This document shows positions 5,833-63,005 of a stretch of DNA of 64,000 bases, in pieces. Source of the DNA: a virus (lineage: Duplodnaviria > Caudoviricetes); IMG/VR virus record IMGVR_UViG_3300020016_000004, positions 1 through 64,000 of that record. One strand, given 5' to 3'. The translations under genes were made by a program, and so were the position numbers. Every line of letters starts with the position of its first letter. Within the stretch, counting starts at the first letter, position 1. The notes below the pieces were generated by a model. That model saw only the letters and a program-made list of their open reading frames with translations. It searched no databases and was not told the origin of the DNA.

Positions 5833-6608
5833 TTTTCGTTGGGGTGTTTGCCTCCTGGATATTTTTTATAAAAATCGGCATCCTTCATGTGCCGATAATC
5901 GTGCTGAAATTCTTTGTCTACATCCGACCACGGTTTGGTTAAAACAATTTCTTCGCTGACCGTATAACCAGATACAATTTCAATTTCATTTTCAGCATTT
6001 AGGTTAACCTTTTGGTTTCTATCTTGCTTAACCGTTTGGTTAACCAAATTAGGGTTGCCTCCGCGCATTCCTGCGATTTTTCGCGTTTTTGACAGTTCCT
6101 CCATTTTTTTGATTTTCCGGCTTTCAATCTTCATCTGCCCGTTATCGAGTTGAGTGAAATCAATTACATTTTTTTGGTTAAGTGTTTGGATAACCAAAAC
6201 AGAGTCTTCCATCGAACAAGACATTAACCTGGAGAAATCCTCATAGGAACCAATAATCTCCCCCCTTATGCTTGCATCCCACATATAAAGAATAAGATCA
6301 ACGTATCCGCCACGCACATTTAACGGGAGAACCCGGGTGTCCTTTAAATAATCACCAACATAAAAGGGAATGTATGGTTGTTTGCCCATGTGAAAATAAT
6401 GGTGTCCGCGTTCAAACAACATCCGGCTGAAACCATTATCGGGAGAAAATGGAACGGTTGTCGTCCTACTAACGGACACTATTTTGAAATAAGATTGTTT
6501 GTTTTCATTGGAATCTGTTTTCAGCTTTTGATTCGGGTGTAATAATAGAAACCATATTGAAACAAAAATATGTTGTGTGAAGTTATTTATCAACAGGTGT
6601 TTGTTCAT
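5829..6608 (-). CDS. YdaU/DUF1376-like replication initiator; homologous domain begins at Met 6389
   Basis: PYIPFYVGDYLKDTRVL....RGGYVDLILYMW; 73-codon in-frame extension to ATG 6608. Confidence 0.78.
   Translation of the reverse strand: MNKHLLINNFTQHIFVSIWFLLLHPNQKLKTDSNENKQSYFKIVSVSRTTTVPFSPDNGFSRMLFERGHHYFHMGKQPYIPFYVGDYLKDTRVLPLNVRGGYVDLILYMWDASIRGEIIGSYEDFSRLMSCSMEDSVLVIQTLNQKNVIDFTQLDNGQMKIESRKIKKMEELSKTRKIAGMRGGNPNLVNQTVKQDRNQKVNLNAENEIEIVSGYTVSEEIVLTKPWSDVDKEFQHDYRHMKDADFYKKYPGGKHPNEK
6390..6570 (-). promoter_or_regulatory. Putative interleaved two-stem leader (third, weaker copy)
   Basis: GCTGAAAAC(6525-6517)/GTTTCAGC(6433-6426) interleaved with GTGTCCG(6479-6473)/CGGACAC(6408-6402). 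Confidence 0.5.
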
Positions 6609-45152: not shown

Positions 45153-45329
45153 ATGGATTCATGTAACGTAACAGTAAAGATAACAGGTGATGCTTTTCAA
45201 CTTGTGTTTGACAAGCAAACAGCAATGACGAAGGCGGGGAATGGTGCATTAAAAAATCGTGTCCCATATCCGAAGGTCATACAAAAACTTCTGGAAGAGC
45301 ATGTGGAACTTTTAAAGAAAGTAAAATGA
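45153..45329 (+). CDS. Small ribbon-helix-helix-like protein (58 aa)
   Basis: Hand translation MDSCNVTVKITGDAFQLVFDKQ...YPKVIQKLLEEH; ATGA overlap with HNH start. Confidence 0.55.
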   Translation: MDSCNVTVKITGDAFQLVFDKQTAMTKAGNGALKNRVPYPKVIQKLLEEHVELLKKVK

Positions 45330-46057
45330 AAACAAAAATTTGTACTCGATGTAAAATCGAAAAGGATGAGGACTGTTTCGGACTACAGCAACCAGACAAA
45401 ACATGGTTACGGACACGATGTAAAGAGTGTTTGCAAGAAATGAAGTTGCTTAAATGGTTTAAAGAACCTGTTGAAAATCTTGAAGGCGAAGAATGGAGAG
45501 ATGTTGTCGGCGAAAAATCCCACTACCAAGTCAGCAACAAAGGAAGAATAAAAAAAATTTACAAAGAGAACCCGTGGATTGAGCTACTGCTAAAACAAGT
45601 TACCGTTGCTGGATACTCAGCATGTACACTCACACCACCAAAAAGACTTGCTAAAATTCACCGCTTAATTGGAATCGCTTTTATTCCTAATCCAGAAAAT
45701 AAGCCAGCCATCAATCACATCAACGGAATTAAAACCGATAATCGTGTAGAAAATTTAGAATGGTGTACCAATTCTGAAAACACAAGACACCGATTCGATG
45801 TTCTCAAACAAGTTAGTGGAAACACAGGAAACCGTGGAATATTAAATCCGCTGTCAAAAAAAATTGTTCAAATGGATTTGAACGGCAATAAAATAAAGAT
45901 ATGGGATAGTTGCGCAGATGCTTTTTCACATTTTACAAATAGAAAAAGAAGGGAAGGCAGCAATATAAGTGAGTCAATTAAAAAGAACACAACAGCATGG
46001 GGGTATAAATGGAAGTATTTTACACCTGAATCTGTTCTTGTTGTTGCGGTTGATTAA
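45326..46057 (+). CDS. NUMOD4-HNH-NUMOD1 homing endonuclease
   Basis: EEWRDVVG...YQVSNKGRIK, HRLIGIAFIPNPENKPAINHINGIKTDNRVENLEWCT, TAWGYKWKY. Confidence 0.93.
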   Translation: MKTKICTRCKIEKDEDCFGLQQPDKTWLRTRCKECLQEMKLLKWFKEPVENLEGEEWRDVVGEKSHYQVSNKGRIKKIYKENPWIELLLKQVTVAGYSACTLTPPKRLAKIHRLIGIAFIPNPENKPAINHINGIKTDNRVENLEWCTNSENTRHRFDVLKQVSGNTGNRGILNPLSKKIVQMDLNGNKIKIWDSCADAFSHFTNRKRREGSNISESIKKNTTAWGYKWKYFTPESVLVVAVD

Positions 46058-50811: not shown

Positions 50812-51345
50812 TTATTTAAAATTCAAATTTGCAAATTCGCCATGATGCTTTTTTGCAGCCTCATCATATAGCTTTGCTGCACCAATTTCATCTTTTCTAT
50901 ACCCGAGCGTCTTGGTTTTCCCGCCAACGCGAATCAGCGCCCTCCATCCACCTGTCTGTGCAGCTCTCGACACACCCAAATATGAAGATGCTGCGTTCTT
51001 TTGAGACTTCCTGTTGACTTGGTTTTGGCTATGGGTTGATTCGCGTAAATTGCTTCTTCGATCATTGAGCCCATCGTGATCTATGTGATCAACTTGAATT
51101 GATTTTTCGGTTATTCCCATTATTAACCTGTGAGCAAGAAGCGTATGGTGTCTCTTGGTTCCCAGAATCCCCACATTTGTTGCAGCGTAAAAAGTATATC
51201 TGCCTTTCAGCAAATACCATGTGTGCTTATTAACTAATTCAAAATCCTGCTCATCCACCACAAGGTATTTTACACCATATTTGGCAGAAGTGATTTTTAT
51301 CTCACGAAACGCATGTATTCCTTTTACTTCAGTAGGTTCTACCAT
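50812..51345 (-). CDS. HNH homing endonuclease with AP2 domain
   Basis: VDHIDHDGLNDRRSNLR, AAKLYDEAAKKHHGEFANLN. Confidence 0.9.
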   Translation of the reverse strand: MVEPTEVKGIHAFREIKITSAKYGVKYLVVDEQDFELVNKHTWYLLKGRYTFYAATNVGILGTKRHHTLLAHRLIMGITEKSIQVDHIDHDGLNDRRSNLRESTHSQNQVNRKSQKNAASSYLGVSRAAQTGGWRALIRVGGKTKTLGYRKDEIGAAKLYDEAAKKHHGEFANLNFK

Positions 51346-53447: not shown

Positions 53448-54300
53448 GTTTAATATTTGTTTTCGGCGACCAGCCGAGAATCTTTTCAGCCTTTGAAATA
53501 TCTAAACACCTCCTGTTAATACCATCAATACTTCTCTTTGGAATCATCTGTATGGAATGGGGCCTGTCGAGTGCCGAACAAATCATTTTAGAAAGATCAA
53601 TAATTGAGGTCTCTATTCCTGTTGCAATGTTGTACTCATCATTCATTGCCGGTAGTTCAATGCACCTCATCACAGCATCCACTACATCTTCAACGTAGGT
53701 GAAGTCTCTTGTCTGCTTACCGTCACCTATTATTTTTATAGATTCTCCTTTGATCGCCGAATGAATCATCTTCCCAACAACACCACAATATTCTGATGAC
53801 GGTCGCTGATTAATCCCCGTGACATTGCTTAAACGAATCGTTGTATAATTTCCACGCTCTTGCAGATACATCTCAGAAATTCTTTTCGACGTATCATAAG
53901 AGTTGACACAATGGATTTTTGCGTGTTCGGGAGTTGGTATTTCTTCGGCGGAATTGTAAACTGAAGCCGTCGAAGTAAAAATTATTTTTCCGCGAAACTT
54001 CTGAAATAAATTTATTGCATGTAAGGCATTGTTAGAAAAAGTTTCTGTCTCATGGGTTTGAGCGTAAATGATGTTTGAAACAGCGCAATGTACAAGTACA
54101 TCAAAGTCGTTCAAAAATCTTGCACCAGCTTCATTGAAATCCTTGTCCATCCACGCCAAACCTTCTGGAATATTCTCTCTGCTTCCAAAAGATAAATTAT
54201 CTATTCCATAGACATCTATGCCAAGATCAATCAGTCGTGCGCAAATTCTACTCCCTACGAAACCCACACAACCAGTTACAAGGCACTTTGTTTTATACAT
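53407..54300 (-). CDS. NAD-dependent nucleotide-sugar epimerase/dehydratase
   Basis: TGCVGFVGS, YDTSK (YxxxK), GDGKQTRDFTYVEDVV. Confidence 0.93.
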   Translation of the reverse strand: MYKTKCLVTGCVGFVGSRICARLIDLGIDVYGIDNLSFGSRENIPEGLAWMDKDFNEAGARFLNDFDVLVHCAVSNIIYAQTHETETFSNNALHAINLFQKFRGKIIFTSTASVYNSAEEIPTPEHAKIHCVNSYDTSKRISEMYLQERGNYTTIRLSNVTGINQRPSSEYCGVVGKMIHSAIKGESIKIIGDGKQTRDFTYVEDVVDAVMRCIELPAMNDEYNIATGIETSIIDLSKMICSALDRPHSIQMIPKRSIDGINRRCLDISKAEKILGWSPKTNIKLGILKTIEWQKTI

Positions 54301-55123
54301 ACGCTCGTTTCTCCCAGTTTTTATGTTCGTTTGCATGACACTTTGCGCACAAGGACTCCCAATCAGAAATATCTCTTTTATATAAATGGCTTTTGTTATG
54401 CCACTGAAATCTTTTAGATTCTAATGCGCCGCATCTTTCACATGAAGACGCTTTCCCAAGTTGCCTATAAACCCAACCGTGGATCGCCTCGTACCCAACA
54501 TCGTCCCCTTTCCATAGCGGATGGTGTTCTCCCGATCTTTCAGGAAACTTCTTATCTTTATTCCATGATCGCTGACCACTCTTAAACTCAGTGAACACAC
54601 CCCGTCGTTCCCCGCCCTTTATACTTCCTTTATTTGGTTTACAAATTCCCGTTCCACCGAGCCCATTATTCCACGGCAAATTATTCTTTTTAAACCAGCC
54701 AGAATTTTCTTTATGCTTTGTGTATCCGTGGGTTTTTGAGCGAATCATATACTTGTAGCCGCACACCCTGCTACAACACTTGTCCTTCCCTTGCTCCAAC
54801 CTCCACTTTTTGGCTTCAAATGCTTTCCCGCATGGACAGGTTTTTGTTATTGTACTTTCCGGCTTCGGCCTTCTCTTGTTTTTGTACAAGACCGAACACC
54901 CCATACTACAAAATTTAGAAAATCTTTTTCCATAATTTTTTGGAACAAACACTTTTCCGCACCCACATATTTTATTTTTCATATCAAATAAATAGCGCCC
55001 CGATTGAAGATGGCTATTACCAACCCAATGAAGGAGAGATACATCTTCGCACGAGGCGTTTAAAGTTTTTGTTTGGGAACATTGAATTAGCAATAGCGTT
55101 ACAAATATAAAAATTGTTTTCAT
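54293..55123 (-). CDS. HNH endonuclease with Cys-rich and NUMOD3-like repeats; homologous part starts at Met 54982
   Basis: CSRVC, PWNNG, SWNKD, Y.AIHGWVYRQLGKA..C..C, LCAKCH. Confidence 0.85.
   Translation of the reverse strand: MKTIFIFVTLLLIQCSQTKTLNASCEDVSLLHWVGNSHLQSGRYLFDMKNKICGCGKVFVPKNYGKRFSKFCSMGCSVLYKNKRRPKPESTITKTCPCGKAFEAKKWRLEQGKDKCCSRVCGYKYMIRSKTHGYTKHKENSGWFKKNNLPWNNGLGGTGICKPNKGSIKGGERRGVFTEFKSGQRSWNKDKKFPERSGEHHPLWKGDDVGYEAIHGWVYRQLGKASSCERCGALESKRFQWHNKSHLYKRDISDWESLCAKCHANEHKNWEKRAYV
54983..55109 (-). promoter_or_regulatory. Structured leader: TATATTTG promoter + interleaved stems A (18 bp) and B (6+7 bp)
   Basis: Pairings read directly; see findings. Confidence 0.75.
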
Positions 55124-55890
55124 ATCGAACGTTTCATTTGTAAATATTCATCAAAATAAATCTGCGGCTTTCCTTCCATTGAAAAAATAATGTAGTCTTT
55201 ATATGCCCGGTAAACTTTTCCGATGTTGGTATGCTCCACTTTTATATCGGGAATAATAGCCCAATCGTACCCATGATCTTTGAAATCCTGAATCATCATT
55301 TCTATGTGACCGTATATTGTTGCTGTCGGCGGATATGGAAGTTCCCTGTTAATTTTATTCAGGAACGCTCCATTGAAAGCAATCTGAGCCCAATTTACAA
55401 CACCCTTCATGCGCCAAACGACAATATCATTGAATAATTCTTTAGTATAAAAATCTTCCTTTATTGTTTCGATGACACCTACCTGGGCCAATGATGCAAG
55501 AGCAAAATTAGAATTGCGACAAACTCTCGTCATCGCATTCACCCATCCATTATCCAAAACCACTTCATCCGGATCGCAACCGATAATTACATCGGAGTCG
55601 TCTGGCTGAATTATATCTATTGCCCGCGACCAATTTTGCTGAACGCCAACGTTATCTATTTTCAAATAGTGAGATCCATAAAGCCAACAGAGTTTTTTTA
55701 ATTTCTCGGTATTATTTTTTTTCGCCGACTCAATATCCTCCGGAATAACATCTCCTTCTTCCAACGGAAAGCCTAAATCGAAAACGTAGTGAGTGAAATC
55801 AACTTTGTTTTGTGCATACAGCCTTTCTACCGCACCAGTTACCTGATCAGGGGTATTGAAGGCAAGGGTGACGCAACTTACAGAATTCAT
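55120..55890 (-). CDS. GT-A (GT2-like) glycosyltransferase
   Basis: IGCDPDEV DxD motif, NVGVQQNW. Confidence 0.72.
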   Translation of the reverse strand: MNSVSCVTLAFNTPDQVTGAVERLYAQNKVDFTHYVFDLGFPLEEGDVIPEDIESAKKNNTEKLKKLCWLYGSHYLKIDNVGVQQNWSRAIDIIQPDDSDVIIGCDPDEVVLDNGWVNAMTRVCRNSNFALASLAQVGVIETIKEDFYTKELFNDIVVWRMKGVVNWAQIAFNGAFLNKINRELPYPPTATIYGHIEMMIQDFKDHGYDWAIIPDIKVEHTNIGKVYRAYKDYIIFSMEGKPQIYFDEYLQMKRSI

Positions 55891-55902
55891 ATTTGTGCTT
55901 GA

Positions 55903-56670
55903 TTAATTGTTGTGCTTATTTTCACATATAATTCTTTCAACATTCCATCCTCTATACATTCTGGACCTAAACAATACAATGTCCACATTATACTTTTTAG
56001 CCATGTCTTTTGGAGACAACTTTTCTCCTTCATATTCTAATAATACGTTGTTTCTTCTATTGTATGCCTGTTGTATAACGGTTGCCCACCGACAATTTGA
56101 TGGTTCATAATTTCCATTATTATTTATACGGTCTATTTCAAGGCTTTCTGAATAACCATTTGAGATGGACCAATTATAAAAGGAAACAAAACTGTTGTCC
56201 CACTCCTTGCATATAGATATTCCTCTCCCACCATAATTTTTATACGAATCCAGTTTTCCGTTCTTACATCGTTGCCTCATTCCATTCCAAATATAATACA
56301 GACGATGCCTTCTTTTCCCATGCTTGTATCCATTAGATTCGTCTCCATATCTCGGGCAACCACACGAAGTGCTCATTCCCTTTATCAAGGTATAGCTTTG
56401 AATTATTTTTTCATTCCCGCAGTCACACCTACATAAAAAGTATTTGAATCTATCTGCTTCGTGAGAATAATTTAAAACAACCCACTTCCCAAATCTCTTT
56501 CCAGAAATATTGTGATCCCTTAACACCCTCTTCCTTTTTTCCATAACATTAAATAAATGCGCCTCTCGGACAAATGGCTTAGAGTTCGTACCGTGAGGAA
56601 CAAACACATTTGTCGTTGAGGCGTTTAAAAATATTTTTGGAAACATAGTACGATACTCTAAGCGGAACAA
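55903..56670 (-). CDS. HNH-type homing endonuclease; homologous part starts at Met 56544
   Basis: CRCDCGNEK, RLYYIWNGMRQRC, YGGRGISICKEW, IDRINNNGNYEPSNCRWAT. Confidence 0.9.
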   Translation of the reverse strand: MFRLEYRTMFPKIFLNASTTNVFVPHGTNSKPFVREAHLFNVMEKRKRVLRDHNISGKRFGKWVVLNYSHEADRFKYFLCRCDCGNEKIIQSYTLIKGMSTSCGCPRYGDESNGYKHGKRRHRLYYIWNGMRQRCKNGKLDSYKNYGGRGISICKEWDNSFVSFYNWSISNGYSESLEIDRINNNGNYEPSNCRWATVIQQAYNRRNNVLLEYEGEKLSPKDMAKKYNVDIVLFRSRMYRGWNVERIICENKHNN

Positions 56671-56675
56671 ATATA
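56545..56675 (-). promoter_or_regulatory. Structured leader: TATATTTG promoter + interleaved stems A (13 bp, one bulge) and B (6+8 bp)
   Basis: Pairings read directly; see findings. Confidence 0.75.
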
Positions 56676-62382: not shown

Positions 62383-62784
62383 TTATTGAACGTGCTTACC
62401 AAGCCACTTATAAGCATCAGTTATAAAATGTTCATCGTTATCTAAATAGTTTGGTATTGAGGGCTGTACAATATTAACAATTTGCTTTTTGTGCTGTTCT
62501 ATTGTCATCGCTTCACAGGCTTTTGCGTTCTCCTTTATATTGAATTGAGCCAAAATGATTAGTTGAGGATAATCACTCATTTGCCACATAGTTTTTATTA
62601 TCCAATCACTTTTTGGCGTCATCTTGTAAAGAGTATTTGCAAGGTGCTTCCTGTATTCAAGCTTGGCAAAGTCGATGTGCTGTTTCAATCTTGCTCCTGG
62701 ATAACAAGTCATTCCTATATATTTTATTACAAGTGCATCAGGACAAAGCAAGCCATAAACCACATACTTTCTTTCGTGTTTCAT
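62383..62784 (-). CDS. GIY-YIG nuclease
   Basis: YVVYGLL...KYIGMT..PGARLKQH, EAMTI. Confidence 0.8.
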   Translation of the reverse strand: MKHERKYVVYGLLCPDALVIKYIGMTCYPGARLKQHIDFAKLEYRKHLANTLYKMTPKSDWIIKTMWQMSDYPQLIILAQFNIKENAKACEAMTIEQHKKQIVNIVQPSIPNYLDNDEHFITDAYKWLGKHVQ

Positions 62785-63005
62785 ATTGAATAATTTAGTT
62801 TTAATCCGATTGAATCCAAATATATTTTTAGGCTCTTAACGCTTACCGAATCATTGCCGGTTTCTATCTTCTTTACCGTCCTTGCGTTCAATCCGGTTTG
62901 CTTCACGCTTATTTTCGCTGATTTTCTTAGCTCCTTTAGGTTCATTGCACAATAATACATAAAAACTCCGTAAATATTGTACTGCAATACTCGTTTTATA
63001 AACAA
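62781..63005 (-). CDS. Small XRE-like HTH protein (likely start 62945)
   Basis: LKELRKSAKISV..GLNARTVKKIETG..SVSVKSLKIYLDSIG; ATGA overlap with GIY-YIG. Confidence 0.75.
   Translation of the reverse strand: MFIKRVLQYNIYGVFMYYCAMNLKELRKSAKISVKQTGLNARTVKKIETGNDSVSVKSLKIYLDSIGLKLNYSI

Follow-up and report, generated by a model that had tools for sequence, protein, structure and literature searches.

What are the two similar stretches that precede two different HNH nuclease genes in a soil phage genome, and what might they do for those genes? The window analysed here is the first 64 kb of the 77.8 kb soil record IMGVR_UViG_3300020016_000004 of IMG/VR; coordinates outside it refer to the whole genome or to locus L042. 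The genome encodes a terminase, a portal protein and a primase-polymerase, among others. The same phage was present at low depth in one further soil run, and a look for RNA runs containing its DNA found none. Promoter type is the sole ground on which it would be assigned to the phages of Bacteroidota. A first-pass annotation had proposed that each of the two genes is headed by a leader RNA folded into two interleaved helices, A and B. We find that these leaders belong to a real, uncatalogued family of structured 5′ leaders, about 105–125 nucleotides (nt) long, which is supported by covariation.

Two leaders in the window and a third outside it

Both window leaders lie on the minus strand, and their promoter box, helix A, helix B and start codon were all confirmed in the sequence where the first-pass annotation had placed them. 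Leader 1 opens with a Bacteroidota-type −7 promoter box, TATATTTG (56668..56675), with the predicted +1 being the G at 56663; the distance from box to helix A is the same in most members of the family. The 5′ strand of helix A (56648..56663) begins at this base and is followed by the A-rich loop L1 (56624..56647), whose 3′ end is the conserved TTTAAA, and by the 5′ strand of helix B (56607..56623), made up of an outer CGCCTC, a 3-nt internal loop and an inner GACAAATG. After the pyrimidine-rich loop L2 (56592..56606), the 3′ strand of helix A (56577..56591) runs without a linker into the 3′ strand of helix B (56560..56576; inner CATTTGTC, loop, outer GAGGCG). A U-rich tail, which is also the translation initiation region (56545..56559), leads to the ATG at 56544 of HNH gene 1 (55903..56544, minus strand), whose 213 amino acid (aa) product matches PHROG 374 ‘HNH endonuclease’ and has no match among Pfam or NCBIfam models.

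Leader 2 is built in the same order. Its TATATTTG box (55102..55109) predicts a +1 at the G at 55097, where the 5′ strand of an 18 base pair (bp) helix A with four G-U pairs begins (55080..55097; 3′ strand 55013..55030). The 5′ strand of helix B (55042..55058) consists of CGCCTC, a 4-nt loop and GAAGATG, and its 3′ strand (54996..55012; CATCTTC, loop, GGGGCG) again follows helix A without a linker. The U-rich tail and initiation region (54983..54995) precede the ATG at 54982 of HNH gene 2 (54293..54982, minus strand, 229 aa), which has a weak C-terminal match to PF01844 HNH. The 12-mer TTTAAACGCCTC has two exact occurrences in the 77.8 kb genome, one per window leader, and helix A was recovered in both leaders by single-sequence folding.

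The strength of the paired arrangement was measured with a script that seeks two interleaved helices with an abutting junction between the 3′ strands of A and B and sums their duplex energies. The sums were −41.0 kcal/mol for leader 1 and −44.8 kcal/mol for leader 2. Dinucleotide shuffles averaged −4.8 and −7.2 respectively, with a standard deviation (sd) of 8–9; the best shuffle reached −22.8, and 0 of 60 reached the observed value. The interleaved helices of the two leaders are thus far beyond chance. Their register to the promoter is also fixed. Counting from the first T of TAnnTTTG, helix A begins 12 nt downstream in most members, and the Flavobacterium promoter box spans T−12 to G−5 (PMC6847099, PMC9723704); by this spacing and numbering, helix A opens with the predicted +1, a G after a pyrimidine.

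Two copies had been claimed in the first-pass annotation, and the count was too low: the genome holds three, and the element is also part of a wider family. A search with the promoter box found leader 3 outside the window, at 67331–67445 of the genome (L042:3331–3445, minus strand), in front of a third HNH gene of 163 aa of the HNH_3/AP2 kind. Leader 3 opens with TATATTTGTTCCGC, identical to the start of leader 1, and has a 9-bp helix A and a long helix B of a sequence unlike the others; it belongs to the second of the two sequence groups described below. When all 81 TAnnTTTG sites of the genome were scored, the top three real interleaved-helix scores were those of the three HNH leaders, and a fourth high score was a mere overlap with leader 3. 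As had been proposed, the nucleases downstream differ in subtype: proteins 1 and 2 show no detectable similarity, and the three leader-bearing nucleases are unrelated except for a short motif common to genes 1 and 3.

A family of covarying leaders

Outside members were sought in 240 loci, which were fetched from viral, genome and metagenome collections through alignment of relatives of the third nuclease, and were identified with the interleaved-helix script and two covariance models. The energy scanner, if unrestricted, had a high background in GC-rich loci, and its hits were accepted only if promoter-anchored and AT-rich. About 15 further members were found in unrelated viral and metagenome contigs; all precede HNH genes, and they fall into two sequence groups. 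Group I (L044, L100, L131, L229, L136 and L279) has a long helix A and a helix B in which an internal loop divides a GC-rich outer part from an inner part. Group II (L051, L062, L111, L237, L221 and a second copy in the L100 record, L302:1501–1619) has an A of 9–11 bp, a B of 15–19 bp, a conserved UUGCCAA, a small hairpin C and the junction GCCUUU. The covariance model of each group picks up members of the other, weakly and at the correct place, which indicates that the two groups are related. Three further loci (L066, L068 and L086) have both helices without a promoter box or a model match and are counted as possible members only. A scan of 453 promoter-like sites in six related records taken whole (172 kb) placed its seven highest scores in front of HNH genes without exception. 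The suggestion that this is a portable module is borne out to the extent that promoter and leader travel together before unrelated HNH genes.

Searches by other routes were less productive. Exact-pattern scans of viral and metagenome contigs for the motifs of leaders 1 and 2 gave no match, and a looser pattern gave 32 matches, all of them chance-like and rejected. No close relatives of the terminase or of the 256-aa neighbour were found in IMG/VR. HNH gene 2 had partial relatives only, and the leader was not in their upstream regions. Model R1 was run on 151 genomes of the phylum to which a Bacteroidetes-labelled metagenome-assembled genome belongs and matched none of them. The claim that the element is not a described family was checked against Rfam 15: at gathering thresholds there were 0 matches on the window and 0 on 16 member loci, so that no member matches that release, and at E values up to 10 the best leader match was RAGATH-7-assoc, with 20.9 bits against a threshold of 88.5 (E 0.91).

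Both helices covary: 91% of cells are paired, compared with 29–43% in controls with slid partners, and 0 of 500 shuffles reached the observed value. This upholds, in both groups, the earlier view of a conserved sense-strand structured leader whose pairing is kept by compensatory change. One alignment, of five group II leaders, was made with plain MAFFT and was fitted to no structure. In it, helix A is 97.8% paired with five of nine pairs changed on both sides, and helix B is 93% paired with 13 of 15 pairs so changed; sliding the partners by 1–3 columns reduced pairing to 35–44%, and again no shuffle out of 500 reached the observed value. When seven group II sequences were placed on a model with B and C and without A, helix A was 95.7% paired, helix B 90.5% (14 of 15 double changes) and hairpin C 82.9%. 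The group I alignment for helix B, which was itself fitted to that helix, shows 92.8% pairing and double-sided changes at 10 of its 14 pairs. For helix A of group I, all 72 cells of the nine outermost pairs are paired, and each position has 2–6 pair types (permuted partners, 0.56). This count came from an end-anchored script and is hence fitted to the helix ends; the script was used because MAFFT could not align the helix ends and the model-fitted alignment A9 misregistered A. Helix A was present in all members found by models lacking it, namely L221, the second G004 copy, window leader 2 and L131. Partner swapping among 17 leaders pointed the same way, with −20.7 for a leader's own A and −10.3 for a swapped one, and −29.5 and −15.8 for own and swapped B.

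Such inverted repeats pair as DNA too, and they are located at the borders of the cassettes, as a cruciform, a recombination site or a homing site at the cassette 5′ border would be. We consider a DNA-level element very improbable. About a tenth of the pairs are G-U (59 of 585) and would turn into A-C mismatches if the complementary strand were the one to fold. Of 36 helices, 28 are stronger when read from the sense strand, with the caveat that they were defined on that strand. These two observations are our grounds for preferring RNA over DNA, and the fixed register to promoter and start codon points to RNA as well.

A second alternative, that the leaders are N-terminal extensions of the nucleases, is scarcely credible, even though leaders 1 and 2 are stop-free in frame and an ATG at 55123 overlaps the upstream stop codon. 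The stored public call for HNH gene 2 in fact starts there and covers the entire leader (54983–55123, minus strand), giving 276 aa; the first 20 residues of this longer form resemble a lipoprotein signal peptide. In-frame stops are found, however, in 10 of the 14 family leaders tested, with leader 3 of this phage among them; homology to the PHROG family begins at residue 11 of the short form, and leader conservation tracks base pairing rather than codons. The family as a whole does not share the stop-free frames of leaders 1 and 2, and the coding reading was rejected; given the in-frame stops, the 276-aa call is most likely a start-site error.

The order of strands is 5′A-5′B-3′A-3′B throughout, each helix being supported by its own covariation. 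Helix A has 9–20 bp and helix B 14–23 bp; the loop of B is 26–37 nt long and contains the 3′ strand of A. Loop L1 is rich in A; L2 is rich in pyrimidines in group I and accommodates hairpin C in group II. The linker between the 3′ strands of A and B is 0–3 nt, and that between the 5′ strand of B and the 3′ strand of A is 7–25 nt. The H-type topology assigned by the first-pass annotation therefore stands as regards helix order but departs from classical geometry, since it is the two 3′ strands, and not the 5′ strand of B and the 3′ strand of A, that the short linker joins. If A stacks on B, the transcript 5′ end would sit at the nick of a quasi-continuous helix of 25–35 bp. Few bases are conserved between the groups (a YGC start and the GCC junction, UUGCCAA being confined to group II), and a highly conserved ligand pocket of the riboswitch type was looked for across distant members and not seen. 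In group II, UUGCCAA follows the 5′ strand of B, and pairing of its CCA with UGG in the 3′ strand of A would extend hairpin C into a long rod with B. This pairing is a possible alternative to helix A; both of its sides are invariant, so covariation is uninformative about it.

Proposed control of nuclease output

Helix B resembles a terminator and also covers the initiation region. Its outer five pairs are 67% GC, compared with 38% for the inner pairs, an A-rich run lies 5′ of it, and the tail that follows averages 5.1 U in 8 nt, with at least five in 15 of 18 members; the other initiation regions of the phage are 23% U and 44% A. With its A-U extension, helix B ends 1–15 nt upstream of the start codon. 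The pairing probability of positions −20 to −1 is 0.71 over 18 leaders, compared with 0.44 (sd 0.20) over 52 other gene starts. Initiation in Bacteroidota depends on low structure and upstream adenines (PMC6847099). As helix B is terminator-like and lies over an initiation region that in Bacteroidota needs low structure, a damper could act at both levels.

Our preferred reading, to which we give a probability of about 0.5, is that this is a family of promoter–leader–HNH cassettes in which a cis-acting leader damps nuclease output, by premature termination, by a block to initiation, or by both. Each cassette would be self-contained, with its own promoter, leader and free-standing HNH homing-endonuclease gene, in phages with Bacteroidota-type promoters. 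Some transcripts would stop at helix B and its U tail, upstream of the open reading frame (ORF), a step that the GC-rich base, U-rich tail and A-rich 5′ flank would fit. In transcripts that read through, helix B would block ribosome loading at an initiation region that is normally unstructured and A-rich, and its cover of −20 to −1 would fit such a step. Helix A, which may strengthen or weaken B, would tie the transcript 5′ end into the loop of B and might thereby preorganise or lock the fold and hide the 5′ end from decay enzymes.

Several points weigh against this proposal. The helix B loop is far longer than the 3–8 nt of the intrinsic-terminator criterion, and a simple consensus terminator scan did not call helix B. 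Efficient termination behind the cassette promoter would have polar effects on the downstream genes, which are tightly packed. The GC core of helix B stops 13–15 nt short of the ATG in leaders 1 and 2, where the initiation region is thereby only partly buried. The link of outside members to HNH genes is biased, most of them having been reached through relatives of one HNH type. Finally, in group I the energies of folds in which A or B is enforced, computed as nested alternatives with folding tools that handle nested structures only, are near equal (A/B −28.6/−26.4, −26.4/−26.7, −30.9/−29.8 and −31.6/−30.8), and such balanced states fit a switch as well as a knot.

A two-state switch would require A and B to be sterically exclusive. 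Helix A would fold first, while the RNA is still being transcribed, so that B's 3′ strand and the initiation region stay available, the on state; B would be favoured in the off state by refolding, by a trans factor or by a 5′ extension on read-through RNA, and the leader would thereby tell cassette-promoter transcripts from operon read-through. Besides the balanced energies of group I, the switch can draw on the 0–3 nt linker, which together with the long stems strains a knot, on the start of A exactly at the predicted +1, and on the ability of UUGCCAA in group II to pair with the UGG of A's 3′ strand in place of A itself. We nevertheless regard it as rather unlikely. A and B have no nucleotides in common, and in group II B is better than A by 10–19 kcal/mol, which leaves the states unbalanced. 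The loops are long enough for a knot, those of group I being A-rich (L1) and pyrimidine-rich (L2) as in loop–helix triplexes, and no conserved pocket or factor-binding site is visible.

A related and more speculative idea, which we hold to be unlikely, is that the leader senses the transcript 5′ end and stops or silences one class of transcript while passing the other. Because A starts at +1 and abuts B, only transcripts from the cassette promoter could stack A on B into one nicked 25–35 bp helix; read-through transcripts of the host operon would bear a 5′ extension at the nick. If this were true, a selfish nuclease cassette could sit in essential phage operons without polarity.

The same 5′ end, paired from +1, together with the terminator-like 3′ end and the conserved promoter box, would also suit a leader whose main role is stabilisation, or an independent small RNA of roughly 110 nt that has its own function and whose two ends lie in helices, the nuclease being made by read-through only. 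This we judge improbable: the element is found only immediately before an ORF, with the start codon 1–15 nt past B, and its loops are poorly conserved, with no target-binding surface apparent.

Damping by the leader in cis is to be weighed, lastly, against an autogenous operator, in which the nuclease would repress its own synthesis by binding the leader, in the manner of T4 gp32 and the 5′ pseudoknot of its mRNA. The leaders do resemble the gene 32 operator in that such a knot is succeeded by an initiation region rich in A and U (PMC3014915), and I-TevI autorepresses, although by acting on DNA (PMC2988022). In this one genome, however, the leader is shared by three nucleases that have no detectable similarity, which makes autoregulation by the downstream protein unlikely; the helix sequences differ between copies, and few bases are conserved. 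We consider this explanation decidedly improbable.

Known systems and other genes of the phage

Homing endonucleases are selfish genes whose dosage must stay low, and to our knowledge the controls on their expression are known almost only from T4-like coliphages. A structured RNA encoded just upstream of an HNH-containing ORF is also known in HEARO (HNH Endonuclease-Associated RNA and ORF), the omega RNA of IscB. The present leaders likewise stand right before an HNH ORF, but they match no Rfam family, HEARO included; their proteins are small homing-type nucleases (163–229 aa) and not IscB, and the RNA has no free guide segment.

In the T4 family, homing endonuclease genes (I-TevI, I-TevII, I-TevIII, segB and Aeh1 mobE) carry hairpins that sequester the ribosome-binding site, with nested late or middle promoters (PMC2988022). 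As here, a cis RNA structure just before a homing endonuclease ORF buries the ribosome-binding region, and the presumed purpose is to keep the nuclease low. The T4 hairpins are single, however, and lie over a Shine-Dalgarno site, whereas the present family has two interleaved covarying helices and no Shine-Dalgarno site. In T4 the promoter inside the hairpin gives rise to open transcripts, whereas here the promoter is upstream of both helices and +1 is the first base of helix A; no nested promoter of the T4 type was found inside the 5′ arm, the sole conserved promoter box being the upstream one.

Transcripts of T4 mobE, a gene that lacks its own promoter, are limited by an intrinsic terminator that has a 9-bp stem and a 4-nt loop and lies 27 nt into the ORF (PMC2790892). 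Both arrangements place a GC-rich stem and a U tract so that fewer transcripts would cover an HNH homing endonuclease ORF, but the terminator-like helix here is in the 5′ untranslated region and has a 26–37 nt loop that pairs with the transcript 5′ end. The leader of gene 32 in T4, T2 and RB69 has a small classical H-type knot 67 nt upstream of the start codon, which nucleates gp32 binding (PMC3014915, PMC535899). Common to it and the present leaders are a 5′-terminal pseudoknot in a phage mRNA and, after it, an initiation region rich in A and U; the present leaders differ in having long stems (9–20 and 14–23 bp), a short linker between the 3′ strands and no evident common protein partner.

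The regulatory idea itself is known from the structured leaders of phage homing-endonuclease genes; the interleaved-helix family is an uncatalogued variant of it, and its mechanism is inferred. For phages of a phylum without Shine-Dalgarno-led initiation, the family would be a separate way of holding nuclease dosage down, and a portable unit common to unrelated nucleases. Its fold is unusual in pairing the first transcribed base beside a terminator-like helix. Gene callers absorb the leader into the ORF, as in HNH gene 2, stored as 276 aa instead of 229. The promoter–leader unit could serve as a compact low-expression part for Bacteroidota.

Other nuclease genes of the phage are organised differently. 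No comparable intergenic leader was found at four other HNH-like genes of the genome (45326 plus, 1444 minus, 51345 minus and about 72.6 kb minus), three of which are HNH_3-like and lie in the window (45326–46057 plus, 914–1444 minus and 50812–51345 minus). A GIY-YIG homing-endonuclease-like gene (62784, minus strand) has the same −7 box with a short, unstructured leader (62784–62831); judging from this plain leader, the structured leader is not on all nuclease cassettes of the phage.

A canonical small terminator hairpin (GAAGCC..GGCTTC and a T run) lies just upstream of the leader 3 promoter, at L042:3455–3500 on the minus strand (genome positions about 67455–67500). Its position suggests that cassette 3 is shielded from read-through, and cassettes 1 and 2 are not. 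In the nuclease motif of HNH gene 1, IDR..N..NCRW, an Arg stands at the place of the first His (IDH) of the third nuclease, and by its sequence the protein may be catalytically degenerate. An extra TATATTTG box, a match of the kind expected by chance too, is found inside the ORF of HNH gene 1 (56288–56295, minus strand). By analogy with the promoters embedded in T4 endonuclease genes, it could be the promoter of the downstream 256-aa gene.

A look-alike leader with the same layout precedes a DUF1376/primosomal-like replication gene (6390–6569, minus strand). Its helix A is formed by GCTGAAAAC and GTTTCAGC, its helix B by GTGTCCG..GACAAC and GTTGTT..CGGACAC, and a U-rich tail follows; helix A lies about 30 nt from the predicted +1. 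Support for it is marginal, as one of 60 shuffles reached its score, and neither a model match nor any homologue was found for it. The true start of the replication gene seems to be the ATG at 6389, and not that at 6608.

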